A stretch of 63,949 bases of DNA, counting the filler, from a bacterium (GTDB lineage: Bacteria > JAMORN01), in assembly GCA_027063545.1 (NCBI GenBank). It is 8 parts of 8 records of this genome, joined end to end, with 100 filler letters (N's around TTAATTAATTAA, not from the genome) between each part and the next. Parts side by side here need not be neighbours in the genome. Positions count along the whole stretch, not along the records: positions 1 to 8,300 come from JAMORN010000122.1; 7 more parts are not named here. One strand, written 5' to 3'. The notes beneath the pieces were generated by a model. The model was not told the DNA's origin, made no database searches, and saw nothing but the letters and a program-made list of their open reading frames with translations. Below are positions 1 through 56,633 of this stretch, piece after piece. The translations under genes were made by a program, and so were the position numbers. Numbering within the stretch: the stretch's first letter is position 1; each line of letters opens with the position of its first letter.

Positions 1-94
1 AACTACTAAGGATATATTAGGAGAAAAAGAAGTTAATTGAAAAAAAGTTTATTTTGTTCCTAATTTTTTGATAGGAAAAATTTTAAATTTTTAG
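1..94 (+). CDS. 3' end of a CDS truncated at the window edge, possibly an AAA_14/DUF4143 ATPase C-terminus (code 25)
   Basis: Frame from base 2 reads TTKDILGEKEVN(TGA=G)KKVYFVPNFLIGKILNF-TAG. The TKD...G..V.FVP pattern resembles DUF4143 C-termini (by eye). Confidence 0.4.
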
Positions 95-111
95 TTAAAA
101 ATGGATAGTAA

Positions 112-1128
112 ATGTATTTTAATTGACTAACTTTATGAATAGTTGCACCATCTTGGTGACCAGCAAGATTTTATTCTAAAAGATTAGAAAAGTGTATAAA
201 AAATGCTAAAAAATTGAAATTTAAGCTTAAATTTATGAAACACTCTTTAAATAGTAATTGATATATTTCGGATTCTCCTCAAAATAGAGCAGAGGATATA
301 CATCAGGCTTTTGTTGATCCAGAAGTAGATATTGTAATGACTATGATATGAGGAAATCATTCTTTGCAAGTACTTAAATATTTAGATTATGATTTAATTA
401 AAAGAAACTTTAAACCTTTTGTTGGTTTTTCTGACATAACGGTGCTTCATTATGCAATAATTTCTCAAATATGAAAACAAACATATTATGGTCCAGCCTT
501 TATGACACAATTTTGAGATTTAAGAAAAGAATTAGTAAACTATACATTTTGATATTTTGAAAAAGTTGTTGTGAAAAAGCAAAGGAATGTAATAGTACAA
601 TCAAGTAAGTATTATATAGATGATTTTGTAGATTGGGCTGAAGAAAGCAGATATAGAAAGCTTTATGTTAATAAATGACAACGGTGGCTTAAAAGATGAA
701 AAGCAATTTGACAGATAATATGATGATGTATACCTTCATTGAATCGGGTATTAGGAACAAGATATTGGATAAGTCCAAAAGATAAGATATTTTTTATAGA
801 TATACCTGAAGGACATTGTAGAATAGATGAATGATTGGAGATTCCAGATGTAGATGCTTGTTTTGCACAATTAGATAATGTTGGATTATTTGACGAAATA
901 AAGGGATTGGTAATATCGATTCCTTATAGGTATACTGAGAAAATGAAAAAAGATTTTGAAGATTTGATTTTATATTATACGAGGTGAAAAGATTATCCTA
1001 TCTTGATGGATGTTAATATATGACATATAGATCCTATTGTAAGTATTCCATATTTGTCTAATGTTTTATTAGATTCAGAGAAAGATTTATTTGTTTTAAA
1101 TTGTGAAAAAACTTGAAAAGTAGGATAA
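112..1128 (+). CDS. S66 family peptidase, MccF-like (338 aa, TGA=Gly)
   Basis: ATG112 to TAA1128 is open if 17 in-frame TGA are read as Gly. Motifs: GIVAPS, RAEDIHQAFVDPEV, MIGGNHS, FVGFSDIT (catalytic Ser), TYYGP, IIGGCIPSL, NIGHIDP (catalytic His). Several TGAs fall on conserved Gly positions. Confidence 0.92.
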
Positions 1129-1174
1129 AATTATTATAAGTCAATAGATACAATATAAATATTGAAACAAAAAC

Positions 1175-1214
1175 AAAACTCCTGGAAAGATGATAGAAAA
1201 TCCAGGAGTTTTTT
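1175..1214 (+). terminator. Intrinsic-terminator-like hairpin after the S66 gene
   Basis: Perfect 12-bp inverted repeat AAAACTCCTGGA (1175-1186) / TCCAGGAGTTTT (1201-1212), 14-nt loop, ending in a T-run. Confidence 0.65.
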
Positions 1215-1248
1215 ATTGTAAAAAGATTTATAATATAACAAAGAGGGA

Positions 1249-4200
1249 ATGGAAAAGAGGAAGGGTATAGAAAAAGGTAAGAGGCTAATATCTAGTGTAT
1301 TGATAGCGACAACTTTATTTACGAGTTGTTGATGATGAGGTGGATGATGAGGGTGAGGAGTTGAGGGAAGTAGTGTGGGAATAAGTGTGACGAATAGTGA
1401 TTTTCGAGGTAATCAGCAAAATATAGAAGATGAAGACAGTAAGATAGTGTATTGAAAAATAATAGATGATCCATTAGAAGGGTCAGAAGTAAGAATAAAG
1501 ACAGTAGATGGTTATACATTGTATGAGACGAGAACGGATGGAAGATGAGTATTTTGAGTAGATGTAGAGGAATTAAGAAAAAAATTAGATGAATTTTATG
1601 GGAAAGATGTAGATGTAAATAAGGTAAAGTTGGTAATAGAAGCAGAGGGGTGAGTAGAAATATATACTAGGGACAAATTTAAAGGTAGGATGATGACAAT
1701 AAAGTTAGAAGGAGAAGGTTTAGAAGATATTGTAGTAAATCCGTTATCAACAAAATTAGTAGAAGAGGTAAAGATTCAATGATATAGATTAACAGAGCTG
1801 AATAGGCAAATAGTAGAGCAAGTTATTAAGAATTTGCAGACGAAATATGGATATATGTATGATGTAGATGGAGATTGAAAAATAACGATAAAAGATTTTA
1901 ATAGATATGATCCAGATGAATATGATAGTGGATTAGAGGATAGTTTGAGAGATGAAGGATATTTTAAGAAATTAAAGAAGTGAGAGGAAAATATAGACAC
2001 TACAGAAGATAATTTTGAAAAAATAAGGGAAGTAGTAGAAAAGTTTATTAATACTAATGAGGATATAGATGACTCTAAAATAAAAGAGATAAAAAGTAAA
2101 GAAGAATTGATAAAGGAATTGGAGGCTAAATTGAAAAAGATAGAGGAAGAGATAGAAAGATTAAATAAGGAGATACAAGAGTTGAAAGATAAGTTAAACA
2201 ATGATTCTGGTAGTAAAGAGATATTGGAAGCGATAGAACAGTTGGATGCGAAGAGAGAGGAATTATTAGCAGAGATGTGAGAGATAAAATATTTGTTAAA
2301 TAAAGAGACTTTAACAGAAGAAGAGATAAAGGAGGCAATATGATTAATTAATTGAAACAGAGTGAAAAGGATAACAAGGGGTGTGAGTTATGGAGTATAT
2401 AGATTAGTTAAAGGGGAAGAAAATTTAGAAAATAAGAAAGAAGAACTAGCCAAGCAGTTAAATAATTTGGAAAAGATAAAGGAGGTGTTAGAGGGAGAGA
2501 TAGAAAATATAAAGGAAAATATAGAGAAATTAGGAAAAGAAATTCAGGATAAAGAAATTCAGGATAAAGAAATTCAGATTAAAGAGATAGAAAAAGGAGT
2601 TGAGCAGATAAATAGTCAGATAAAAGATTTAGAGGAAGAGTTGAAGAGATACGAAGAAGATAGAGCTAAAGCTAAAGAGTATTTAGATAGACGGAATAGA
2701 TTGTTAGCTCAAATAGAAGATGTAAAAGAGAATATGGATTATTGGTTTGAAGAAGATGGTAAATACTCTGAAGAATATTTTGATAAGAGACGAGAGTTGG
2801 GTATATTGGATAGTATACCAGGATGATATGAATATAAGTTTTTTGAAAAAAGATGGGAATATAAGGGTTATAATATATTGGTGGAATGATATAGACAAAA
2901 TAGAGATACCCAAACTCCATTTATACTTGTATTATATATAAATTGAGAAAGAAGAGATAGTGAAACGTTATATGTAGAGAATATTTCTGAGGTTAGCAAT
3001 AAAGTTAGTTGATATAACGATTATATAAAGGTAATGATAGACTGGGATATAGCATACGAAAAATATAAAGACTATAAAGTTAGATATGATAAATTGATAA
3101 ATCAGAAAGAAGAGCTAAAAGAAGAGATTTTAAGATTTGTAAAAAAATATGAAAAAGAAGATTGAACATATTATTCGATACCGGAGTTAATAAATAGAAC
3201 TAAAGAAGAAATAAGTAATAGAAGAAAGGAAAAGGATGATAAATTAAGTCTGATAAGAAGGATAAAAGAAGATAAAGAGAGGTTAAAGTCAAAAATGGAA
3301 CAGTTAAAGGAGGAATTAGAACAAAAGAGAAGAGAATTATTAGAGATACAAGAAAAGATAAATAAGATAAAAGAGAAATTAACGCAGTATCAAGTGATAG
3401 TGAAGGAAGAAATGACTAATATAGAGGATTATCTTGCATTTTCAGCAAATAGTAATTTAGAAGAAATTACAAATCAGATTAAGGATAAAGAAGAACAAAA
3501 AAAAGAGTATCAGAAACAAGAAGAGAGTATAAAAAATCAAATAGAGAAGAATAGATTAACAAATGAATTAAGACAGGATGATCCGTTATATTATGATGAA
3601 AATAAAAGAGAGTATATTTATGATATAAATCAAATACCATCGAATCCTACGAGGCTTATAGGGTGATTAAGATATTGAAGTGAATGATATATGAGGACAC
3701 CATATACAATATATATAAAATATGGGATAAATGGTGATGGTAGTAATTATCCTGCGAAGGTATGGGTAGAATATGTAGATGGGGAAGGGGTGAAGATATA
3801 TAAGGAGGAGATAGTGAACAATTATGAGTATAAGGAGTATATAAAATGGAAGTTGAAGGAGGAGATAGAGAATAAGTTGAGATCTCAGTTTGTAGAGGAG
3901 GGACAGTTGAATGTAGGTTGAGAAAAGGTAAGGTATTGGATAAGAAAGGATGATAGTTGAAAATGTTGGGGATGGTATGAGTGGAGGGATATTTTATATA
4001 GAATTAAATGATTTTTGGACAAAAAAGGACTGATAAAGCAGATAGAGACAGAAGTTTTAAATATGCAAAAAGAGCTAAAGGAAGAAACAACAGAGATAAA
4101 TATATATGATTATTTTAGATGGTGATGGATGTGATTTAAAGATGAATTAGGAATATATAATTTAGATATACCAATGTGATATTGTAAAGTAGAATGAAAA

Positions 4201-5304
4201 TATGAAAATATAAGAGAAGAGTACATGAAAGGTATGGAGCAAGTAGTAAATGATGATGAGATAAAGAAGGAGATGAAAGATATAATAATAGAAATGTGAA
4301 ATAAAATATGAAAATGATATAAAGATGGTTTAAAGGATAGTATAAAAGATACTTTCGATGTTTTGTGAACGATTGAAGGTTTGGCAGAAATAGCGGAATG
4401 AACTTGGAATTGAATGGTAGAATGTGTAGGTATAAGTATAGATTTGGCAGGTAGTACTGTGTTTAGTGGAATAGAAAAATTATGTTGATGGATAGGAAAT
4501 AGTTGGTGTGAAGAGAAGGCGAGAACATATAGAGAGACATTTGAATGGAATTTGCAAGTGAAAGATGAAGAAATAAAGAGAGTGATAGATGAAGTTAAAT
4601 GGTTTCTAACGGAATTAGATATAGATATAAAGGATGAAGAGATTTGATATGTATGAGGTTATACAACGTGAGTATTAGTATGATGAGCGTTAGTATGAAG
4701 TATAACAAAACAACCTAGTGTAGTTAGAGCTGTTATGATGAGAGTATTATGAAGAAATAAAGTAATAGTGAAGATAATTAAAAGAGCGATTAGAAAGAAA
4801 GATTATGGATGGATAAAGAAGAATAAATTGAGATTAGAGCAATTATTATGAGTGGAAGATAGTGGTAGATTATGGGAGGTAGGTATGGAGATATTTAAGA
4901 AAATGGAGAAGAATGAGATATTAGACTATATAAAGCAGTTAAAAGAGATAAAATCTTGAGAAGACTTGATAAATGTAGCAAGAAGAGTAGAGTATAGATT
5001 AGATCCAAGGATAGAGTGATGAGCGATAAAGGTGAAATGAGATTATGGATGAGCATGGAATATAATAGGGAAATTGGAGAAGAGTGGATGGAGATATTTA
5101 GAGAAAGAATCGGATAATTTTAGATGAGTAATAGTATATGAGAGTCCGAATGGGAGGTGGAAAGTGAATTTAAGGGAAGTGAGTAATAGTGAGGAGAAAT
5201 TTGAAAGAGCAGGGTATAAGGTAGAAGCTACAATAGATGTGATTGAGATTAAATGAAGTGATAAATATAAAACGGAAATAAAATTTATAATGTTAAAGGA
5301 ATAA
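1249..5304 (+). CDS. Large lipoprotein with polymorphic-toxin-like architecture (1351 aa, TGA=Gly)
   Basis: One frame from ATG1249 (GAGGG upstream) to TAA5304 with no TAA/TAG. Track ORFs 2362-2826, 3295-3666 and 3691-3921 are in-frame pieces split only at TGA. N-terminus is KRLISSVLIATTLFTS-C27 followed by 10 Gly; then coiled coils, a Gly-rich hydrophobic segment (4645-4698) and a compact C-terminal domain. Confidence 0.88.
2536..2580 (+). repeat. 15-nt in-frame tandem repeat x3 (KEIQD-KEIQD-KEIQI)
   Basis: AAAGAAATTCAGGAT twice, then AAAGAAATTCAGATT. Confidence 0.85.
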
Positions 5305-5308
5305 GACT

Positions 5309-5875
5309 ATGGAAAGTAGATATAAATTTTTAGAAAATCCATTTGATAAGAATAATAGTTTAGAGGAAGAATATATACATTATAGGTCAGTAATAGAATA
5401 CAAATTAAATAATGGGGAAATACCTTATTTAGATTGGTGGATAATATTTTTTCAGAGGAAACTAAAAAAAATGGGGATAGATTATAGAAGAGATGTAGAT
5501 ATATTGCCTTATGTATTAGAATATATCTGAGAGCTAATAAAGGAGAAGAAGGTGAAGGTGAATAAGATAGGGATAGAGGAGTATGATGAGCCTAGGAAGG
5601 AGAAGGTGAAGGTAGGGATAGATCCGGATACATGAGAAGATATAATAAAGGAAGTGGAAGTAAGATTTAGGCGGATAGATGAATGAGTATTAGATCCGTG
5701 TGAGATAGAGGATGAAAAGGAGTTAGAGAGAAAGGTAGAGGAATGGAAGAGTAAAACATATGAGTTATATAAGTATTTATTGAAAAAATATGGCAATGAT
5801 GCTGCGGAATATCTGTTATATATTTTGGAAATAAGAAGGACTACATGTTATGAATGAGAGATAAGGATAGAGTAG
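5309..5875 (+). CDS. Putative cognate immunity protein (188 aa, TGA=Gly)
   Basis: Starts 4 nt after the toxin stop with AAGGA upstream. Track ORF 5309-5530 continues through 4 TGA to TAG5875. Highly charged with no signal peptide. The ORF is seen directly; the function is inferred from position. Confidence 0.65.
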
Positions 5876-5899
5876 GCCTATGAAAGAGGCTTTTTTTTT
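5875..5899 (+). terminator. Short hairpin plus T9, possible terminator of the toxin-immunity unit
   Basis: GGCCT-ATGAAAG-AGGC-TTTTTTTTT directly at the immunity gene stop. Confidence 0.5.
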
Positions 5900-6253
5900 G
5901 AGTTAAAATTAGGAATCAAATATATAGAATTCAGATGAAATGTAAAACTAAGTATAGCAGAAGCTAGGTTAATGTTAGAAGCAATAAGAGATCAACTTTT
6001 GCAAACATTAAAAGGTATAAATGATATAAAAGATGTGAAAGACTTAATAAGATTAGCAGAAAAATATCAATATCTGGATCCATTGATAGAAAAGAACGTG
6101 ATATTTGTAAAATGAGATGAGGAATGAGCAATAAAGATAATAGAAAAATTTAGCTACTTTTTTATTGTGATGAAGAGGATTATTTTAAATGAATGAAAGT
6201 TTTTCAAAATTAATCGTAAGATTTCAAGAGAAGTGTACCACTTTAAGAAATAA
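5900..6253 (+). pseudogene. Orphan, truncated paralog of the toxin C-terminal tip
   Basis: The open frame (code 25) encodes LLQTLKGINDIKDVKDLIRLAEKYQYLDPLIEKNVIFVKGDEEGAIKIIEKF. This aligns by eye with toxin residues ILDYIKQLKEIKSGEDLINVARRVEYRLDPRIEGGAIKVKGDYGGAWNIIGKL. Similarity ends near 6151. Internal ATG at 5972, TAA at 6251-6253. Confidence 0.7.
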
Positions 6254-6341
6254 GATTAATTCTAGTATTAAAGAACACTTTATAAGCAGTTAAAAAGTTG
6301 TATATTTTTCTAGGCATTAAGTTTATTATATGTTAATATTA

Positions 6342-6421
6342 TGCACCATCAAGATTTTTGTTTTCATTGTAGTTGGTTGTTAGGTGTTAAATATTTTTAT
6401 TTTATTTATCTTGGTGGTGCA
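6342..6421. repeat. 14-bp inverted repeat with 52-nt loop
   Basis: TGCACCATCAAGAT (6342-6355) / ATCTTGGTGGTGCA (6408-6421). The single mismatch is a G-U-compatible pair on the + strand. Confidence 0.7.
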
Positions 6422-6457
6422 CTTCAAATTTTATTTAGATTAGCTTTTTCTAAATAT

Positions 6458-6485
6458 TTGACAATTTTTTTAAAATAATTATAAA
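6458..6485 (+). promoter_or_regulatory. Sigma70-type promoter
   Basis: TTGACA (6458-6463), 16 nt, TATAAA (6480-6485), about 40 nt upstream of ATG6525. Confidence 0.5.
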
Positions 6486-6524
6486 TAAATTAATGAAGAT
6501 TTTAAAAATTTAACTAATTTTGCT

Positions 6525-7319
6525 ATGTCAGAATTACAAAAAAATCAAGAAATTGAAAGACAACCTGAGACAAAAAAAAGTAAAATTTTTGGGATTAAAA
6601 AACAATTAGCAGCACTTTTAGCAGCAATATGAATATGAGTTTCAGGAGCAGTTGATAATGTAGGAAAGGTGATAATACCTTCAGCGTACGGAACTGAGGT
6701 TAAAACTTATAAACAGATAGAAGATAAGTTGAAGAATTTACAGCCTTGACATTTTTTGATAGTAAAATTATCTTCTAATGAATTAAAGGAATTAAAGAAG
6801 GATTTAAAAGATTGATATGAAATTTCTGTTCTAAAAGATGGAAGAGTAAAAATTATTAGAGTGAAAGAAAAAGGAAATGAGAAAGATTTGTTAAGTTGAT
6901 TAGATAATTTATCTATGTCAGATGATGAATTGAAGCAAATATCATGATTAGATAAATTAGAAAAAAAAGTTTCTCATATAGAAAGATTAGCGATAATGAG
7001 TCCGACACGGAGTATAGATTTGGTGGTATGAAAGTTTGAAGAATTATTTAAACAAAAAAAATATGATGAAATAATTAAATTGTTGAAAGATGCTTATAAA
7101 GCAAATAGTGTAGAAAGTTCTTATGTAGATAGAAAAGAGTGAGAATTATATTTTTGAAAGGATAAACAAGGATGAGTTTGGAAAAATTTTATAGAGATGA
7201 CAGAAAAAAGATTAAAGACTGTATCTGATAAAGGTGAAAAAAAGAAGTTGGAGGAAATTTTAAACTTATTAAAAAATATAAGAGAAATAGTAAAATTTAA
7301 AGATTATGATTTAGCATAG
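6525..7319 (+). CDS. Hypothetical membrane-anchored or secreted protein (264 aa, TGA=Gly)
   Basis: ATG6525 to TAG7319 is open with TGA=Gly. N-terminal hydrophobic segment QLAALLAAIGIGVSGAV contains two TGA-encoded Gly. Confidence 0.75.
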
Positions 7320-7333
7320 TTAGATTTTTTCTC

Positions 7334-8300
7334 ATGAATTTTGAAAAAATAGAACAAATACAAAAATGAAATGAATGAACTGAAAAAAAGGAACATTCAT
7401 TGTTTTCTGAGTTGGAAAATAAGAATAATATTTCAAAAGATTTTTTTGAAAATCAGATAAATAACTTCTTAAATAAAGAATGAATTGTGTGAAAACAAAT
7501 TTTTGAAAATTTTTTAAAATTCTTAAAGAAAAATAATTTATATGATGTAAAAGATGTTATAGCCTCTACGTATTTAATTAGTAAAATTATTGATTTAAAG
7601 AGTCCCCAAGAAGCTAAAAAAATTTTTTATTTGTTAATAAATCGTAAATCTAGTAAATTGTTAGTTTTATTAGGAAAATTTTCTCAATATGTAGATAAAG
7701 CTTATATCTACTATAAGCAGTTAAAAAATGTAGAAACAATTAGTAGATCAAAGTTAGAAAAACAATGAATTAATGCAGAAACTGCTAATAATCGATTTTC
7801 GGAAGTTTTTAAAATTTTTAAACAGGATGAGTATTTAAAAAAGTATTTTGAAAATATAGAAAAGTGAAAAATAAAGGTTTTTGAAGAATTGCTTAATATA
7901 ATAATAAATAAAGTAAAATCTTTTGGTAATGATCAGATAAAATTAACTGAATTAGTTAGTTGAGAAAAGTTAAATGAAGTAAAAATTTTTTTAGAAACTT
8001 TATTTAAGGGAAGGATAGACCAAATCTCTTTAGACGAAGTAAAAACAAAATTTATTTTTTTATCTTTAAAGCAAAGAGTAGCTAGTACTACTCCTAAATA
8101 TCAACAATCTATTGAAACTCAAGCCCAACAAATTTCAGAAAAATATGGAATATCTCAAGATGAGGCATTTATATATGTATTTAATAAGTTCTACCAAGAA
8201 AATCAACAATTTGCTAACAAAATATGAGAGATACCTTCTCAATATAAATGATTGATAGAATCTATTACTAAGAAAGTAGAAGAGCAAATAAAAGTTTCTG
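7334..8300 (+). CDS. Hypothetical protein, 3'-truncated at the fragment end (TGA=Gly)
   Basis: The ATG7334 frame has no TAA/TAG up to 8300, only TGA. Lys/Glu/Phe-rich, helical-looking. Confidence 0.75.
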
Positions 8301-8400
8301 NNNNNNNNNNNNNNNNNNNNNNNNNNNNNNNNNNNNNNNNNNNNTTAATTAATTAANNNNNNNNNNNNNNNNNNNNNNNNNNNNNNNNNNNNNNNNNNNN
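8301..8400. other. Artificial contig linker
   Basis: N44-TTAATTAATTAA-N44 (stops in all six frames). Confidence 0.97.
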
Positions 8401-9964: not shown

Positions 9965-11266
9965 TTAATCTTTTCTTACATATTTATTTTTATAAAAAGT
10001 ATATAAAACATCTCCTTTAAATTCCATTCCAATAAAAGGAGAATTTTTAGACCTTGAATGAAATTTATTTTTATCTATTTTTATTGACTTTTCTATATCT
10101 ACAATTGTAAAATTAACAGTTTCACCTTCTTTTATTTTTATTTCTTTTAAGCCAAGTATTTTTCTAGGATTTATACTTAATAATTCTACAATTTTAGTTA
10201 AAGGAAGTTTTTCCTTATGATATAGTATATCACAAACAACATTAAAGGCAGTTTCAAGACCAATAACGCCAAATTTAGCAAGTTCAAATTCATTATCTTT
10301 TTGAGATGGAGTGTGAGGAGCATGGTCAGTGGCAATAACATCAATAACTCCATTTTTTATTCCTTCAATTATAGCTTTTCTATCTTCTTCTGTTCTTAAA
10401 GGAGGATTCATTTTTAAATTACCATCTAATTTTTCTAAAAGAGCATCCTCTGTTAGACTTATATAGTGGGGGGTTGTCTCAGATGTTATTTTAACTCCTT
10501 TTTTCTTCATCATTTCAATTACTTCAACAGAATATTTTGTAGAGACATGAGCAATATGTATTTTGTAATTTAAATATTCTGCTATAACAGCATCTCTATA
10601 CACATATATGCTTTCAGAAATAGGAGGAATCCCCTTTATCCCCCATTTGCTTGAAACCTTTCCTTCATTTATATGCCCCCCTTTTAAAAAAGGATCTTCA
10701 CAATGGGAGATTATTAGTCCATCAAACATAGAAGCATACTTTAGAGCATTTATCATGATCTCTGTATTTAAAATGCTATCACCATCATCACTAAAGGCTA
10801 TTGCTCCTGCCTCTTTTAATGTTAGCATTTCTGATAAAAATTCACCTTTTCTTTCTTGAGTTATAGAGGCTATAGGATATATATCTATAGGTGTTTTTTC
10901 TGCTTTTTTTAAGATATCTTTTATAATTGAAGGATTATCTATAGGAGGATTAGTGTTGGGCATAATTGCAACACCAGTAAAGCCTCCATAAAAGGCTGCT
11001 AATGCTCCTGTTTCAATAGTTTCTTTATTTGACTCTTTAAAATCTCTAAAATGAACATGCATATCAAAAAAAGCAGGAAGTAAATACATAGAATCCTGAG
11101 ATTCTATTGTTAAGACATCTTTATCATCTTTCAGAAAATCAGTTTTTGCTATCTTCTGAATAATACCATCTTCTACATAAATATATCCTTTTTTGAAATT
11201 TTTATCATTAGAAGAGTAATATTTAATATTTTTTATATAAAGTTTTTTAAACCTCTTTATGCTCAT
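9965..11266 (-). CDS. pyrC: Dihydroorotase
   Basis: DMHVHFR, MPNTNPP, HIAHVS, KMNPPLR, IATDHAPH; operon context. Confidence 0.95.
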   Translation of the reverse strand: MSIKRFKKLYIKNIKYYSSNDKNFKKGYIYVEDGIIQKIAKTDFLKDDKDVLTIESQDSMYLLPAFFDMHVHFRDFKESNKETIETGALAAFYGGFTGVAIMPNTNPPIDNPSIIKDILKKAEKTPIDIYPIASITQERKGEFLSEMLTLKEAGAIAFSDDGDSILNTEIMINALKYASMFDGLIISHCEDPFLKGGHINEGKVSSKWGIKGIPPISESIYVYRDAVIAEYLNYKIHIAHVSTKYSVEVIEMMKKKGVKITSETTPHYISLTEDALLEKLDGNLKMNPPLRTEEDRKAIIEGIKNGVIDVIATDHAPHTPSQKDNEFELAKFGVIGLETAFNVVCDILYHKEKLPLTKIVELLSINPRKILGLKEIKIKEGETVNFTIVDIEKSIKIDKNKFHSRSKNSPFIGMEFKGDVLYTFYKNKYVRKD

Positions 11267-12192
11267 CCTCTTCCTCCAAGAAGTTTATAGAGTATAGCCA
11301 TTCTCATTGCAACCCCATTTGTTACCTGAGGGAGTATAACACTATCTTTGCTGTCTGCTACTTTTGAGTCTATTTCAACACCTCTATTCATAGGACCAGG
11401 ATGCATTATAAGTGCATTACCTTTTATTCTTTCGTATCTTTCACTAGTTAATCCAAAAAAATCATTATATTCTTTAATAGAAGGAAATAATCCTTTTTTT
11501 TGTCTTTCTAATTGTATTCTTAAATTATTTATAACATCAACACCTTCTATTGCTTTATCCATATCAGTATATACCTCATCAACACCTAGAATATAAGGAT
11601 CTTCAGGCAGAAGTGTTTTAGGTCCGCAGATTCTCACCTTTGCACCTAGTTTTTTTAAAGCATATATATTACTTCGTGCTACCCGAGAGTGTTTAATATC
11701 ACCTGCTATTAAAACAACCTTACCTTTTAAATCGCCTAAGTTTTCTATCATTGTAAATATATCAAGAAGTGCCTGCGTTGGATGCTCATGAGCACCATCA
11801 CCAGCATTTATTATAGCAGAGCTATTAAAAGTAGAGATATATCTTGGTAAATCAACTAAAGAGTGTCTTACTACTATAGCATCTATTTTCATAGCCTCAA
11901 TATTTAAAATTGTATCTTTAATACTTTCTCCTTTATTTAAAGAAGAAGTAGAAGCAGAAAAGTTTATAACATCACAGCCCAATCTTTTTTCAGCAACTTC
12001 AAAAGATACTCTGGTTCTTGTAGAAGGTTCAAAAAATAGATTTACCACAGTTTTTCCCTTTAATGTGGGAACTGACTTAACAGGCTTTTCTAATACTTCT
12101 TTAAAACTTTTTGCTAGTTCTACTAATTCAAGAATATCTTCTTTAGATAATTCTTCTATACCAATGAGATGTTTAGGATAAAGTTTTTCCAT
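11263..12192 (-). CDS. pyrB: Aspartate carbamoyltransferase catalytic subunit
   Basis: FFEPSTRT, HEHPTQALLD, MHPGPMNRGVEI. The TGA stop overlaps the pyrC ATG. Start placed at ATG12192 after a GAAGGAG SD. Confidence 0.96.
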   Translation of the reverse strand: MEKLYPKHLIGIEELSKEDILELVELAKSFKEVLEKPVKSVPTLKGKTVVNLFFEPSTRTRVSFEVAEKRLGCDVINFSASTSSLNKGESIKDTILNIEAMKIDAIVVRHSLVDLPRYISTFNSSAIINAGDGAHEHPTQALLDIFTMIENLGDLKGKVVLIAGDIKHSRVARSNIYALKKLGAKVRICGPKTLLPEDPYILGVDEVYTDMDKAIEGVDVINNLRIQLERQKKGLFPSIKEYNDFFGLTSERYERIKGNALIMHPGPMNRGVEIDSKVADSKDSVILPQVTNGVAMRMAILYKLLGGRG

Positions 12193-12712
12193 AAAAAACT
12201 CCTTCATCCTTATCTATTTCTTTTAAATGAACTTCTATTGATATATTCTTTTCAACTTGTATTTGTCTTCCTTTATATTCAACAAAACAAGGAATTTCCC
12301 TTTCACCAATTCTGTCTATAATAGCAAGAACTTTTATTTTTTTTGGCCTTCCAAACGAAAAGATTGCTTCTATAGCTGCTCTTATTGTTCTTCCAGTATG
12401 TACCACATCATCGACTAATATTATCTCTTTATCTTCTACATCAAAAGGAATTTCTGAACCCTCTACAGAAGGATGAACAAATTTCCGGGAAAAGTCATCT
12501 CTATAAAATGTAATATCTAAAGCACCAAATAATAAATCAACACCTTCTTTATTTTTTATAATATCTTTTATTCTTTTACCTATTATATCCCCTCTTCTTT
12601 TTATACCAATTATTGCCAAATTTGAAAAGTTATCATGTTCTTTTTCTATTATTTCAAAAGCAAGGCGTTCTATAATTTTGTTAAGTTGCTTTTCATTTAT
12701 AACTGTTTTCAT
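12173..12712 (-). CDS. pyrR: Bifunctional pyr operon regulator / UPRTase
   Basis: GIKRRG, LDITFYRDD, LVDDVVHTGRTIRAA, GRP. Confidence 0.93.
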   Translation of the reverse strand: MKTVINEKQLNKIIERLAFEIIEKEHDNFSNLAIIGIKRRGDIIGKRIKDIIKNKEGVDLLFGALDITFYRDDFSRKFVHPSVEGSEIPFDVEDKEIILVDDVVHTGRTIRAAIEAIFSFGRPKKIKVLAIIDRIGEREIPCFVEYKGRQIQVEKNISIEVHLKEIDKDEGVFYGKTLS

Positions 12713-12750: not shown

Positions 12751-13929
12751 TTATAATAAAATACCAATTTTTACATCTAAATGCTCTTTTAGATCTAAAT
12801 AAATAGGAGGATCAATTCTATCATTATTTTTACTTTTAAATAAAACAATTAAAGGTCTTTCAGGTTTATTTTCATCCACTTCAACAACAGCCCCTTTATA
12901 TCCTAGTAAAGTTTTGTCATTTGCTTCTTTTATATATATTAAACTACCCACAGGATAAACAGGTATTGTTTTTAGAAATTCTTCAACAATTACCTTATTA
13001 AGATGAGATCCAGCAACTTTTATTATAATTTTTAAAGCCTCTTCAGGAGTTTTGGGTTTAGAATATGGCCTTGGTGATATCATTGCTACATAGGTATCTG
13101 CTACAGTCACTATTTCAGCATACCTATGAATTATATTAGGGTCAAAATCTTTTCTATATGGATATTCATTTCTCCCCTTTAGTCCTCTTGGATAACCAGA
13201 ACCATCTTGGCGTTCATGATGTTGATATGCTACATGTGCAGATAAAAGTGAAATATCGGAATTTGATTTTAAAATTTCAAAACCATAAATTGGATGTTCT
13301 TTTATTAATGAAAATTCTTCAAATGTAAGTTTACCCTTTTTGTTTATTATTTCATTTGGTATAACTACCATACCTATATTATGAAGAAGTGCTCCAATTG
13401 CTAACTCCTCAAGTTCATATTTATTAAATTGAAATCTTACTCCTAAATGAACACTTATTACAGTAACATCTATTGCATGTTGATAAAAATAGTTGTTTAA
13501 CCCTCTTATTAAAGATAAATTTATTAAATTTGAAGTATCTGTTAAAACATTTTCTATAATTCCAGAGACAACATTTTTTATTTTGGAAGGAATTATGATA
13601 TTTTTAAAGTCTTTAGATTTTAACATTTGTTTTAGATTTTTTACTGTATCCTTTTGGGTTTCTACCATTTTTTTTAGATTTTCAACACTTTCTCTTAATA
13701 CTTTATTTGTTTGAAGCATTGTTATTTCAGATAGAGTCTCCTGAGGTGTAATCCCCTTTGTGTCATCATCAATAATATAAAGCCCAGGATAGCCTAATTT
13801 TTTAATTTTTTCAATATACATTTGAGTTAAAACTTCACCTCTTGCTAGAAGTAAATCTCCTTTCTCTGAGATAATAGATTTCCCTAAAATCATTCCAGGT
13901 TTTACTTCATCTATGGGATAGTATATCAT
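12751..13929 (-). CDS. HD-GYP domain protein (HD dyad reads HN)
   Basis: VKPGMILGK N-terminus, HHERQDGSGYPRGL, VADTY, LLHNIG. Confidence 0.88.
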   Translation of the reverse strand: MIYYPIDEVKPGMILGKSIISEKGDLLLARGEVLTQMYIEKIKKLGYPGLYIIDDDTKGITPQETLSEITMLQTNKVLRESVENLKKMVETQKDTVKNLKQMLKSKDFKNIIIPSKIKNVVSGIIENVLTDTSNLINLSLIRGLNNYFYQHAIDVTVISVHLGVRFQFNKYELEELAIGALLHNIGMVVIPNEIINKKGKLTFEEFSLIKEHPIYGFEILKSNSDISLLSAHVAYQHHERQDGSGYPRGLKGRNEYPYRKDFDPNIIHRYAEIVTVADTYVAMISPRPYSKPKTPEEALKIIIKVAGSHLNKVIVEEFLKTIPVYPVGSLIYIKEANDKTLLGYKGAVVEVDENKPERPLIVLFKSKNNDRIDPPIYLDLKEHLDVKIGILL

Positions 13930-14918
13930 ATCTTCACCTTTTCTAATATTTTCTCTATAATATACTTTGTGTTTATATTATCCATTTTTGCCTGAAAGTT
14001 TAAAATAATTCTATGATTTAAAACCTCATATAAAATATTATCTATATCACTTTTTTCTACCATAAATTTACCATCAAGTAGTGCTTTAATCTTTGCTCCT
14101 TTTAAAATTGTTTCTGTTCCTCTTGGTCCAACACCCCACTCCACATATTTTTTTACTTCATCTATTTTTGATAGTTCCTTTCTTGTTTCTTGAACTATTT
14201 TTATTATATACTCTATTAATTTTTCTGAAATAACTACATTGTCAACAAAATTTATAATTTCAAATATATCATTTTTATTTAAAATCTTTTCAATAACAAT
14301 CTTTTCTCTTTTAAATGTATTTATTAAAATTTCTTTTTCTTCTTCAAAATTAGGATATGATAACTCAAGAGAAAAAGCGAATCTATCAAGTTGAGCCTCT
14401 GGAAGAGGATATGTACCCTCTTGTTCTAATGGATTTTGTGTTGCAATTACCATAAATGGAAGATCAAGTTTATATAGAAAATTTCCTACATTTATCTGTT
14501 TTTCCTGCATTGCTTCCAATAAAGCAGATTGGGTTTTAGGAGGGGTTCTGTTAATTTCATCTGCAAGAAGAATATTTGTAAAAATAGGCCCTTTTTGAAA
14601 TTTAAATATTTTTTGATTTGTGGTTGGATCTATATCAATAATTTCTGTGCCAATAATATCAGAAGGTATTAAATCTGGAGTAAATTGTATTCTTTTAAAG
14701 TCCAAATCTAAAACATGAGCAAATGTTTCTGCTAAAAGACTTTTTGCAAGTCCAGGAACTCCTATTATTAATATATGACCCTCTGTAAAAAGGGCATAAA
14801 ATAAAAAATCTATTATTCTATCTAACCCAACTATTTTTTTATGTATTTCTTTTTTAGCAGTATTAATTTTCTCTAAAATATTCTCTATCTTTCTATTATT
14901 TTTAATAATAGTTTCCAT
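13926..14918 (-). CDS. MoxR family AAA+ ATPase
   Basis: GVPGLAKS, RIQFTPDL, LADEINRTPPKTQSALLEAM, ATQNP, YPLPEAQLDRF. Confidence 0.95.
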   Translation of the reverse strand: METIIKNNRKIENILEKINTAKKEIHKKIVGLDRIIDFLFYALFTEGHILIIGVPGLAKSLLAETFAHVLDLDFKRIQFTPDLIPSDIIGTEIIDIDPTTNQKIFKFQKGPIFTNILLADEINRTPPKTQSALLEAMQEKQINVGNFLYKLDLPFMVIATQNPLEQEGTYPLPEAQLDRFAFSLELSYPNFEEEKEILINTFKREKIVIEKILNKNDIFEIINFVDNVVISEKLIEYIIKIVQETRKELSKIDEVKKYVEWGVGPRGTETILKGAKIKALLDGKFMVEKSDIDNILYEVLNHRIILNFQAKMDNINTKYIIEKILEKVKI

Positions 14919-16494: not shown

Positions 16495-16594
16495 NNNNNN
16501 NNNNNNNNNNNNNNNNNNNNNNNNNNNNNNNNNNNNNNTTAATTAATTAANNNNNNNNNNNNNNNNNNNNNNNNNNNNNNNNNNNNNNNNNNNN
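16495..16594. other. Artificial contig linker
   Basis: N44-TTAATTAATTAA-N44. Confidence 0.97.
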
Positions 16595-24635: not shown

Positions 24636-24735
24636 NNNNNNNNNNNNNNNNNNNNNNNNNNNNNNNNNNNNNNNNNNNNTTAATTAATTAANNNNNNNNN
24701 NNNNNNNNNNNNNNNNNNNNNNNNNNNNNNNNNNN
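24636..24735. other. Artificial contig linker
   Basis: N44-TTAATTAATTAA-N44. Confidence 0.97.
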
Positions 24736-29809: not shown

Positions 29810-30019
29810 ATGATAGATTGGATAGGTTTTTCTTTAAACATTCTTGTTATAATTGTATTAATATTTATAGCTCTATTATATACTATGATAGCAATAAGAA
29901 TGCAGATATTAATAAGAAGAATAGATAAAATTATAGAGTTATTCCCAGAGGTTATAGATTTAAAAGAAGAATATCTTGATCTAAAAGAAACTTATCGTCA
30001 ATTAAAAGAAGAAGAGTAG
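29810..30019 (+). CDS. Small single-TM hypothetical protein
   Basis: 69-aa ORF divergent from pyrE, with a hydrophobic N-half and a charged tail. Confidence 0.55.
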   Translation: MIDWIGFSLNILVIIVLIFIALLYTMIAIRMQILIRRIDKIIELFPEVIDLKEEYLDLKETYRQLKEEE

Positions 30020-30993
30020 TAAATAGTATCTTTTTTATTTATTAAAATAACTCTTGTGGAATCAGGTAATTTTTTTAGAAGTTCAGGAGAATATTTTATG
30101 CTTAAAACAGTTGCCCATATATCAGCCATTATTGGATTTGGTGTTATAACAGTAGAGGAATTAAACTCTTCTTGAGGGTACCCAGATCTAGGGTTTATTA
30201 TATGAGAAAATTTTTTACCATTTATTAAATAAAATCTTTCATAGTCTCCACTTGTTGCAATTGCAGTGTTTTTTAGATACAATATTTTAAATATTTTTTG
30301 TTTGTTAAATGGATCTTTTATTCCTATTTTAAAAGGCTTATCATTTTTTGATGTCAGATATATATCACCACCAGCATTTATTATATAATATTTTATACCA
30401 AGAGAATCTAACTTTTTCTTTGATATATAAAGAGCATAACCTTTGGCTATAGCCCCAAAATCTAGGCCCATAAACTTTTTCTTTAAAAATATTTCTTTAG
30501 TAGAATCTATTAAGATTATATTATTCATATTGCATAACGCTTTATATCTTTTAATAGTACATTTACAAGGCATTTTTCCGACTTTTGCATATCTTTTCCA
30601 AATTTTAATTATAGGATCAAGAGCTATATTAAAAAGGTCAGAGATGCTATCATGAAAAGTTTTTGATATTTTAACAATTTCGTAAGTATATGGAGATACT
30701 TTTACAAATTTTTTACCAGCATATAATTTAAGTTTTGCTAAATCACTTTTAGATGAATACGGATTAAAGAGACTATCAAGAATATCAAAAGTGTTATATA
30801 CTACTTTTATACCTTTAAAGGCTTTATTTTGATCTTGGTCATATATTTTGACTTCAATAATTGTATTCATAGATACAAAAGAAAGCTGAGCTGTAGGCAG
30901 ATTTTTAAAAAAAGTATAGTGAAATATTAATACGAATAAAATTAAAAGGATAACAATTCCTGAGACTAAAATAATATTTTTTTTATTTTCCAT
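29998..30993 (-). CDS. apbE: FAD:protein FMN transferase (ApbE)
   Basis: DFGAIAKGYA, NAGGDI, ATSGDYER, SHIINPRSG, ADIWAT. Confidence 0.93.
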   Translation of the reverse strand: MENKKNIILVSGIVILLILFVLIFHYTFFKNLPTAQLSFVSMNTIIEVKIYDQDQNKAFKGIKVVYNTFDILDSLFNPYSSKSDLAKLKLYAGKKFVKVSPYTYEIVKISKTFHDSISDLFNIALDPIIKIWKRYAKVGKMPCKCTIKRYKALCNMNNIILIDSTKEIFLKKKFMGLDFGAIAKGYALYISKKKLDSLGIKYYIINAGGDIYLTSKNDKPFKIGIKDPFNKQKIFKILYLKNTAIATSGDYERFYLINGKKFSHIINPRSGYPQEEFNSSTVITPNPIMADIWATVLSIKYSPELLKKLPDSTRVILINKKDTIYYSSSFN

Positions 30994-32767: not shown

Positions 32768-32867
32768 NNNNNNNNNNNNNNNNNNNNNNNNNNNNNNNNN
32801 NNNNNNNNNNNTTAATTAATTAANNNNNNNNNNNNNNNNNNNNNNNNNNNNNNNNNNNNNNNNNNNN
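32768..32867. other. Artificial contig linker
   Basis: N44-TTAATTAATTAA-N44. Confidence 0.97.
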
Positions 32868-40376: not shown

Positions 40377-40476
40377 NNNNNNNNNNNNNNNNNNNNNNNN
40401 NNNNNNNNNNNNNNNNNNNNTTAATTAATTAANNNNNNNNNNNNNNNNNNNNNNNNNNNNNNNNNNNNNNNNNNNN
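40377..40476. other. Artificial contig linker
   Basis: N44-TTAATTAATTAA-N44. Confidence 0.97.
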
Positions 40477-48480: not shown

Positions 48481-48580
48481 NNNNNNNNNNNNNNNNNNNN
48501 NNNNNNNNNNNNNNNNNNNNNNNNTTAATTAATTAANNNNNNNNNNNNNNNNNNNNNNNNNNNNNNNNNNNNNNNNNNNN
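48481..48580. other. Artificial contig linker
   Basis: N44-TTAATTAATTAA-N44. Confidence 0.97.
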
Positions 48581-56533: not shown

Positions 56534-56633
56534 NNNNNNNNNNNNNNNNNNNNNNNNNNNNNNNNNNNNNNNNNNNNTTAATTAATTAANNNNNNNNNNN
56601 NNNNNNNNNNNNNNNNNNNNNNNNNNNNNNNNN
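56534..56633. other. Artificial contig linker
   Basis: N44-TTAATTAATTAA-N44. Confidence 0.97.

Follow-up and report, generated by a model that had tools for sequence, protein, structure and literature searches.

Polymorphic effectors anchored through a lipobox have already been published: APD1 and APD2 of Amoebophilus appear in the available text of PMC3482391, and SitA in that of PMC8546572, which describes a disordered stretch after the SitA lipobox and a single toxin family in three of six families. Within the Candidate Phyla Radiation (CPR), a polymorphic-toxin candidate of the RHS/YD type has been reported from a Saccharibacterium (available text of PMC6031116). For the Gracilibacteria and Absconditabacteria, the available texts mention pili together with secretion systems and surface proteins of large size, and no toxin-immunity cassette locus (PMC8080830, PMC11452946); our literature search found no description of such a locus for either group, and supplements, which lay outside the search, may list more. 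Little has been described of how recoded CPR bacteria attack, attach and compete around their hosts. Here we analyze a locus at positions 1249-6253 of a 63,949-base stretch of bacterial DNA (assembly GCA_027063545.1; hereafter the window). It comprises the gene of a predicted surface lipoprotein, P0001, which ends in a C-terminal tip module, the gene of a small acidic partner, P0002, and a fragment of such a C-terminal cassette. A first-pass annotation had presented it as a candidate undescribed lipoprotein-anchored polymorphic toxin system; with APD1/APD2 and SitA in print, this overstated its novelty.

Comparison with related contigs supports reading the locus as a polymorphic-toxin-like cassette locus, because the tip-partner order and cassette remnants behind the partner gene are found in four of four loci and the tip also occurs on an unrelated body. 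The toxin-immunity-orphan layout proposed by the first-pass annotation is thus supported in part, in its order and its remnants, whereas the labels toxin and immunity found no matching family or fold. Because no toxin or immunity domain was recognized and no variant module was seen at the expressed position, we consider the chances that this is a toxin-immunity locus to be about even. The features on which the argument rests are listed here (aa, amino acids; nt, nucleotides; ORF, open reading frame; AF2, AlphaFold2).

1249..5304, plus strand: P0001, predicted to be a lipoprotein of the cell surface that has a coiled-coil stalk and ends in a cassette; ORF of translation table 25, 1351 aa, 53 in-frame TGA codons
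1249..1329, plus strand: predicted signal peptide with lipobox (L-F-T-S-C27); in the sequence, basic residues followed by a hydrophobic stretch
1330..1359, plus strand: ten-glycine linker of six TGA and four GGN codons, directly after the predicted lipidated cysteine
1966..3618, plus strand: coiled-coil stalk, about aa 240-790, from profile matches and a composition scan
4516..4812, plus strand: pre-tip part of the cassette, about aa 1090-1188, with helices and a hydrophobic stretch of Gly-zipper-like type (4645-4698); the orphans of two related loci, L003 and L004, begin with a homologous part
4813..5301, plus strand: tip module, aa 1189-1351, four helices followed by an alpha/beta core, from homologs, alignment and AF2
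5309..5875, plus strand: P0002, 188-aa acidic partner, predicted to be cytoplasmic and a candidate immunity protein; starts 4 nt after the P0001 stop
5874..5902, plus strand: terminator-like hairpin with T run, directly after the P0002 stop and before the orphan
5903..6142, plus strand: orphan cassette fragment, in a frame open from 5876; the ORF 5972-6253 is P0003

The anatomy of the locus matches the polymorphic toxin template in its export leader, stalk, pre-module region, mobile C-terminal module, coupled partner and downstream cassette pieces. P0001 emerges as a single ORF under table 25, with Cys27 and the ten glycines where the first-pass annotation had seen a lipobox and a poly-Gly run, whereas table 11 splits the region into pieces of at most 154 aa. 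A hydrophobicity scan of its N-terminus gave aa 13-31 as the sole strongly hydrophobic window, and the leader presumably conforms to the PROSITE lipoprotein rule. P0001 is accordingly predicted to carry the secretion and anchoring signal of the template, here of the Sec/lipoprotein type. Behind the linker lies an acidic region of about 200 aa with an EF-hand- or dockerin-like Asp-rich loop, seen in weak sub-threshold Pfam rows. The stalk was likewise recovered: its profile matches are only of the coiled-coil type (SMC/Rad50/JetC/tape-measure), at about aa 237-516 and 605-796, and its composition agrees. Non-coil inserts are located at about aa 365-392 and 500-600, and a further globular part spans aa 790-960. 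The idea that the inserts at aa 495-625 and 780-960 are repeats of each other was rejected (score 37 versus a shuffle mean of 41), and an Ig-like domain suggested for P0001 could not be confirmed (no Pfam match at E ≤ 1, no PDB sequence match). Within the coiled coil, three tandem 15-nt units of five codons each (2536-2588) possibly mark a length-variable spot of the stalk. Gly-rich hydrophobic regions are present as described, at 4297-4413 (aa 1017-1055) and 4645-4698 (aa 1133-1150), the second of them within the pre-tip part.

A metagenome scan gave three further contigs (L002, L003 and L004), so that the loci compared are the window and these three (n = 4). In L002 an ORF cut at its 5' end extends for more than 1007 aa through stalk, inserts, the Gly-rich pre-tip and the tip, and a 183-aa P0002 homolog starts 3 nt on. 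In L003 the tip end is followed by a 185-aa P0002 homolog after 5 nt and, later, by an M16 peptidase gene, and in L004 an ORF that also lacks its 5' end codes for more than 565 aa, including the tip, and is followed 6 nt on by a P0002 homolog of 200 aa. Tip stop and partner start, 4 nt apart in the window, thus follow in the same order in all four loci. Homology to P0001 extends over stalk and tip, with 32% identity over aa 684-1350 for L002 and 32% over aa 823-1350 for L004.

Cassette remnants lie behind the partner gene in all four loci, three of them truncated and one open at the contig end. The window orphan consists of a pre-tip piece and the first ~45 aa of a tip and carries a 66-aa deletion. 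Its ORF product P0003 matches P0001 aa 1221-1276 with its aa 6-60 (43% identity, E 5e-9), in agreement with the earlier description of a truncated, divergent tip copy. This orphan resembles the L002 protein (score 167, shuffle maximum 58) more closely than P0001 (score 101, shuffle maximum 48), and a suspected continuation in another frame was not significant (score 43, shuffle maximum 52). In L002, manual reading revealed a 9-residue string that agrees in 8/9 positions with the tip C-terminal signature, at about L002:3622-3648 and within 136 nt after the partner gene. The remnant of L004 (2339-3124) encodes at least 262 aa without a leader, begins 30 nt after the partner homolog and runs off the contig. 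Its aa 2-135 match the L002 pre-tip (aa 650-786, E 1e-11) and its aa 18-143 match P0001 aa 1096-1199 (27% identity, E 5e-6), including the G-Y-x-T-G hydrophobic element; aa 136-262 (at least 127 residues) have no match among the three big proteins, i.e., this orphan has a different C-terminus. L003 (876-1016) retains the first 33 codons of an L004-type orphan, after which the sequence decays. Assignment of the L004 orphan C-terminus as EndoU-like was dropped for want of Pfam support.

Mobility of the tip is also indicated by its occurrence on other proteins. An exhaustive HMMER run over 1.84 billion representatives, with aa 780-1351 as the query, returned 19 proteins at E ≤ 1e-3, 16 of which aligned on the tip only. 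The tip homolog P0020 is an 871-aa protein whose source label is a Candidatus Gracilibacteria metagenome-assembled genome. It has only the tip in common with P0001 (32% over 128 aa, E 3e-12); its N-terminal ~720 aa are unrelated, and a Gly/Ala-rich hydrophobic stretch precedes the tip as in P0001. Such reuse on an unrelated N-terminal body points to a mobile module. Many tip homologs show W opposite TGA-encoded glycines of the window, which marks them as table-4 readings of table-25 DNA. In P0007 and P0009 (~255 aa each), a Gly-rich hydrophobic part, with W for TGA-Gly, leads directly into the tip; the two may be either standalone short forms or cut gene calls. For the tips P0006 and P0010, the source on record is in each case a contig of 19,339 bp. 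Scans of species-representative genomes with P0001 and with the tip alignment found no relative. Word-index searches of proteins gave no match for the tip or the L004 orphan, and three rows for P0002, one of them the window's own protein.

The compact tip noted earlier was modeled with confidence: the AF2 model of aa 1189-1351 (predicted local distance difference test, pLDDT, 87.7; predicted template modeling score 0.82) has four helices followed by strand, helix, three strands, helix and a long hairpin. In an alignment of 18 sequences R1309, S1314 and Y1323 are invariant and S1299, K1345, F1346 and I1347 nearly so, and the conserved polar residues persist at identities down to 32-35%. Judging from the strand register, their side chains would lie on one face of the sheet. 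The region aa 1165-1351 is basic, with an isoelectric point of 9.5, as against 5.0 for P0002. A match of the tip to DUF7028 (PF22970) appeared for 3/18 sequences (best E 9.4e-4), below the cut-off, and was treated as noise; our literature search gave no paper on this family.

P0002, the charged 188-aa product seen by the first-pass annotation, shows no export signal and no hydrophobic window in our scan. Its AF2 model (pLDDT 85.1) is helical with one very long beta-hairpin. Within its family the C-terminal ~115 aa are conserved and include two invariant cysteines, and the N-terminal ~70 aa vary; the family alignment displays three unrelated N-terminal versions of ~70 aa on the common C-terminal part. 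Tip and partner C-domain identities run in parallel in six of six locus pairs (58/52, 51/54, 62/51, 68/70, 84/86 and 71/72%), whereas the N-terminal 65 aa of the partner do not track tip identity; L002 and L004, for example, have 84% identical tips and different partner N-termini. The parallel values would fit co-evolving contact surfaces. The terminator-like hairpin behind P0002 is the sole such site in 1-8300; since shuffled sequences average 0.7 sites, its position matters rather than the count.

Several results weigh against a toxin-immunity function. In the window, L002 and L004, the three loci where the stalk homolog can be followed to its end, tip and partner belong to the same families, and at the expressed position 0/3 have a different module. 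This goes halfway towards the outcome that the first-pass annotation had named as refuting its reading, homologs all with one C-terminus and one downstream gene; a second C-terminus was seen solely in the L004 orphan. This second C-terminus is represented by one incomplete orphan and the 33-codon stub of L003, with no partner gene of its own visible, and the window orphan lacks both the conserved tip half and an own partner gene. Shared descent alone could account for the co-variation of tip and partner, lipid modification of P0001 is predicted from a leader whose counterparts in the homologs are cut off with their N-termini, and the data set is small, with four loci, three of them on short contigs from possibly related samples. 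Database comparisons gave no toxin either. Tip, partner and L004 orphan matched no curated family in Pfam, NCBIfam, PADLOC or PHROGs, and PDB sequence profiles showed no toxin or immunity match. Despite its confident model, the tip reached no solved fold above background: Foldseek gave a best E of 0.049 against the PDB and of 0.019 against viral predicted structures (BFVD), comparison with structure representatives a best Z of 4.0 (root-mean-square deviation, rmsd, 3.0; 71 aligned), and a second look at the Foldseek rows a best Z of 3.6. For toxin folds of the BECR or another RNase type, the best rows were those to CDI (contact-dependent inhibition) and PT7 toxin-immunity complexes, at Z 3.1-3.4; they stood among levivirus coats and unrelated proteins and were not counted, being background. 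For the partner model the best solved fold was a Clostridioides difficile S-layer chain (Z 6.0, rmsd 3.2, 90 aligned), under the tool's stated background of 7-8.

A different account of the same locus is that P0001 is a variable host-binding adhesin of an epibiont, with the tip as its binding head, the downstream pieces as silent cassettes for gene conversion and P0002 as a cytoplasmic helper of folding or export. The tip would then stand farthest out on the lipid-anchored stalk of coiled coils, the downstream remnants are without starts or promoters of their own, and no enzyme or toxin fold was recognized. Head switching of this kind would have parallels in surface-lipoprotein variation in Mollicutes (mycoplasma) and in alternative tail-fibre tips of phages. 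The available text of PMC8080830 describes the surface of Absconditabacteria relatives as fibrous, with large proteins that presumably bind the host. However, an acidic, translationally coupled and predicted cytoplasmic partner that co-varies with an exported basic domain resembles an immunity gene, for which a Sec-exported adhesin has no need, and the invariant R, S and Y with a near-invariant K across 18 sequences are more in keeping with a catalytic site than with a binding face under diversification. In addition, the Foldseek search of BFVD gave no tail-fibre match and PHROGs only coiled-coil noise. We regard an adhesin as possible, though on the unlikely side.

Alternatively, P0001 could be a structural, envelope-spanning lipoprotein that docks a wall or S-layer component, with P0002 an unrelated conserved neighbor and the fragments decayed local duplications. 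The same tip and the same neighbor in all loci seen, together with the lack of a toxin signature, agree with this proposal, as does the best, middling structural match of P0002 to C. difficile S-layer chains (Z 6.0 and 5.5). These rows lie below the background given above and were not used as evidence. P0002 cannot be an envelope partner because it has neither export signal nor hydrophobic window, and the proposal leaves unexplained both the reuse of the tip on the unrelated P0020 and the orphans that share the pre-tip, the one in L004 with a C-terminus of another kind. A purely structural role is therefore improbable. It is scarcely credible, finally, that the locus or its recoding is a chimera of assembly or binning, as the spacer-joined contigs of the window and the standard code of seven of them might suggest, since the locus lies wholly within one public contig, a second assembly reproduces it, all ORFs around it use sense TGA and three other contigs share its architecture.

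The data behind that last judgment are as follows. The window consists of eight contigs of about 7.3-8.3 kb each, and gene order across their joints carries no meaning.

8301-8400, 16495-16594, 24636-24735, 32768-32867, 40377-40476, 48481-48580 and 56534-56633: artificial spacers, each made of 12 bases that give a stop in every frame, flanked on both sides by 44 N

Piece 1 (1-8300), which holds the whole locus, is identical to L001, a public metagenome contig of 8300 bp. Run X1, possibly the source run, has an independent assembly that covers 1312-6266 with 0 differences. Run X3, from another study, yielded a contig of 487 nt that crosses the tip-partner junction and shows 1 difference, and runs X2 and X4 short near-identical pieces; none of the runs listed is of RNA. 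Alternative joints in the sequencing runs were not well supported in any case, with short sides of 20-30 letters at 80% likeness and one of 51 outside the locus. Sense TGA occurs in all six ORFs of piece 1 (96 in-frame TGA in total) and in none of 51 long ORFs in the other seven pieces (8401-63949). Three of these 51 have a single TGA 1-4 codons before the table-25 end (aa 315/316, 331/335 and 332/333), where TGA is the real stop of ORFs 11257-12207, 13911-14918 and 29992-30993. Recoding is limited to 1-8300; the remaining pieces use the standard code and are uninformative on the locus. The recoded bacterium of the first-pass annotation hence survives for piece 1 and not for the other seven. 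Because sense TGA is confined to piece 1, the locus belongs to a short contig of a TGA-recoded organism, and because the seven other pieces use the standard code, 8401-63949 comes from another low-GC organism or from several.

A reading of TGA as glycine rather than tryptophan in piece 1 is supported by sequence alignments. In the S66 peptidase P0004, encoded upstream of P0001, a manual count on the alignment placed 9 of the 15 TGA sites in the aligned range opposite Gly of PDB entries 5usd/4e5s and 0 opposite Trp. The Gly10 run of P0001 mixes TGA and GGN codons, and the tip homologs P0012 and P0020, which lack the TGA-derived W excess, have G at the window's TGA columns. A tRNA scan of the contig found no tRNA gene, and hence none to confirm this reading, and an Rfam search of 1-8300 gave no match. 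We read piece 1 as a contig of a table 25, Gracilibacteria-type bacterium, with an operon of two genes whose layout is that of polymorphic toxin loci.

If the toxin-immunity reading is correct, P0001 would be lipid-anchored in a single membrane, with the stalk keeping the cassette at a distance from the cell surface. When the cell touches its target, the Gly-rich hydrophobic part may help the tip across the target membrane, and the tip would act inside the target. It might be a His-less nuclease, a guess prompted solely by the invariant Arg, Ser and Tyr, the near-invariant Lys and the basic charge. P0002 would bind and neutralize the tip in the producer and its kin, and recombination at the conserved pre-tip part would swap cassettes and leave displaced remnants downstream. 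More speculatively, code-25 CPR bacteria could carry a contact weapon of their own, a lipid-anchored coiled-coil lance with an exchangeable cassette (Gly-zipper entry element plus an effector fold not in the PDB) and a new immunity protein; we put this forward tentatively, as a doubtful rather than a probable conclusion. If so, the choice of neighbors or hosts to be hit would be tuned by cassette swapping, and the lance would be a candidate killing or feeding device of epibionts that needs no known secretion machine beyond Sec. If the toxin reading is right, the locus would add a delivery body, an effector fold and an immunity family, all three of them new; if it is wrong, the locus would still show cleanly, in an uncultured lineage, how cassettes turn over at the end of a surface fiber.

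The neighbors of P0001 are an S66 peptidase gene and ORFs without known family. The upstream gene (112-1128) encodes the S66 peptidase P0004 with 17 TGA-Gly codons; its closest solved relatives belong to the MccF/MccC-type microcin C self-immunity or LD-carboxypeptidase family (E 4e-41). Downstream lie two recoded ORFs without Pfam, PADLOC or PHROGs family, one of 264 aa with one N-terminal hydrophobic segment (6525-7319) and one of more than 322 aa that is cut by the contig end (7334-8300). Neither is conserved beside the locus in L003, which has the M16 peptidase there. Over the AT-rich intergenic stretch 6095-6648, the summed contig depth of run X1 rises from ~10 to 1500-1740, probably through cross-matching of AT-rich DNA at the 80% threshold. 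This stretch contains a 14-bp long-range stem (about 6343-6356 with 6407-6420); it matches no Rfam family, nothing else in the window repeats it, and the folding energy of 6255-6524 is unremarkable (z -0.65). The pieces at 8401-63949 encode ordinary metabolism, including an M23 peptidase, a dihydroorotase-like protein, a glutamate-synthase-like oxidoreductase, GH35, glycogen phosphorylase and a Nuo51-type subunit; a PorV-like row remained below threshold (E 3.5e-4, 20.6 bits versus a cut-off of 27).

Among the described systems, SitA of the myxobacteria resembles P0001 in its lipobox and linker, its family-specific N-terminal body, its C-terminal toxin module and its adjacent immunity gene, the last two being candidates in the case of P0001 (available texts of PMC8546572 and PMC5562445). 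This is a likeness by description, not by sequence, and SitA toxins belong to known nuclease families, whereas the P0001 tip matches none. SitA also has an escort domain of ~375 aa, from one of six families, where P0001 has a coiled-coil stalk of ~900 aa, and it resides in the outer membrane and is delivered by TraAB-mediated outer membrane exchange, whereas relatives of the window organism are described with a single membrane (available text of PMC8080830).

The Sec-exported polymorphic toxins of Zhang, Aravind and colleagues share with the locus the leader, the stalk or repeats, the pre-toxin region, the C-terminal module, the adjacent small gene and the downstream standalone cassettes (available text of PMC3482391). 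Their listed trafficking, pre-toxin, toxin and immunity domains were not detected here, and in P0001 a coiled coil replaces RHS, filamentous-haemagglutinin (FHA) or other repeats. Measured against the template of Zhang et al. (2012), a downstream small gene and downstream orphan cassettes are present; as to different C-termini on homologous bodies, the expressed site has the same tip in 3/3, the second C-terminus occurs only in the L004 orphan, and the same tip is found on the P0020 body.

CdiA-CT is a two-part cassette, with an entry part and an effector part, a division that the P0001 cassette would share. CdiA-CT/CdiI and the locus have in common a tightly linked gene at the immunity position and orphan CT fragments that keep an upstream conserved piece. 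P0001 differs in having no two-partner secretion (TPS) domain, FHA repeats, VENN motif or CdiB neighbor, none of which was found. As the first-pass annotation had stated for CDI, Rhs, LXG and MafB trafficking domains, Pfam gave no match at E ≤ 1 for CDI, Rhs/YD, LXG, MafB or PT-TG domains on P0001 or on its L002 and L004 homologs. The CDI structural rows, 5t86_A (Z 3.4, rmsd 4.3, 82 aligned) and 6cp9_B (Z 3.1), are within background. PT-TG (PF14449) likewise places a small-residue region just upstream of the C-terminal module. According to the available text of PMC13483458, it is a conserved Gly/Asp/Arg loop of 15 residues that is predicted to be disordered, whereas the P0001 element is a hydrophobic, Gly-zipper-like stretch; membership of the pre-tip in PT-TG was rejected on this different motif and the lack of a Pfam match. 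If the toxin-immunity reading holds, the locus would follow the same logic as these known systems, but what delivers the module, a coiled coil on a lipoprotein in a lineage reported to have one membrane, would be new, as would the module and partner families.

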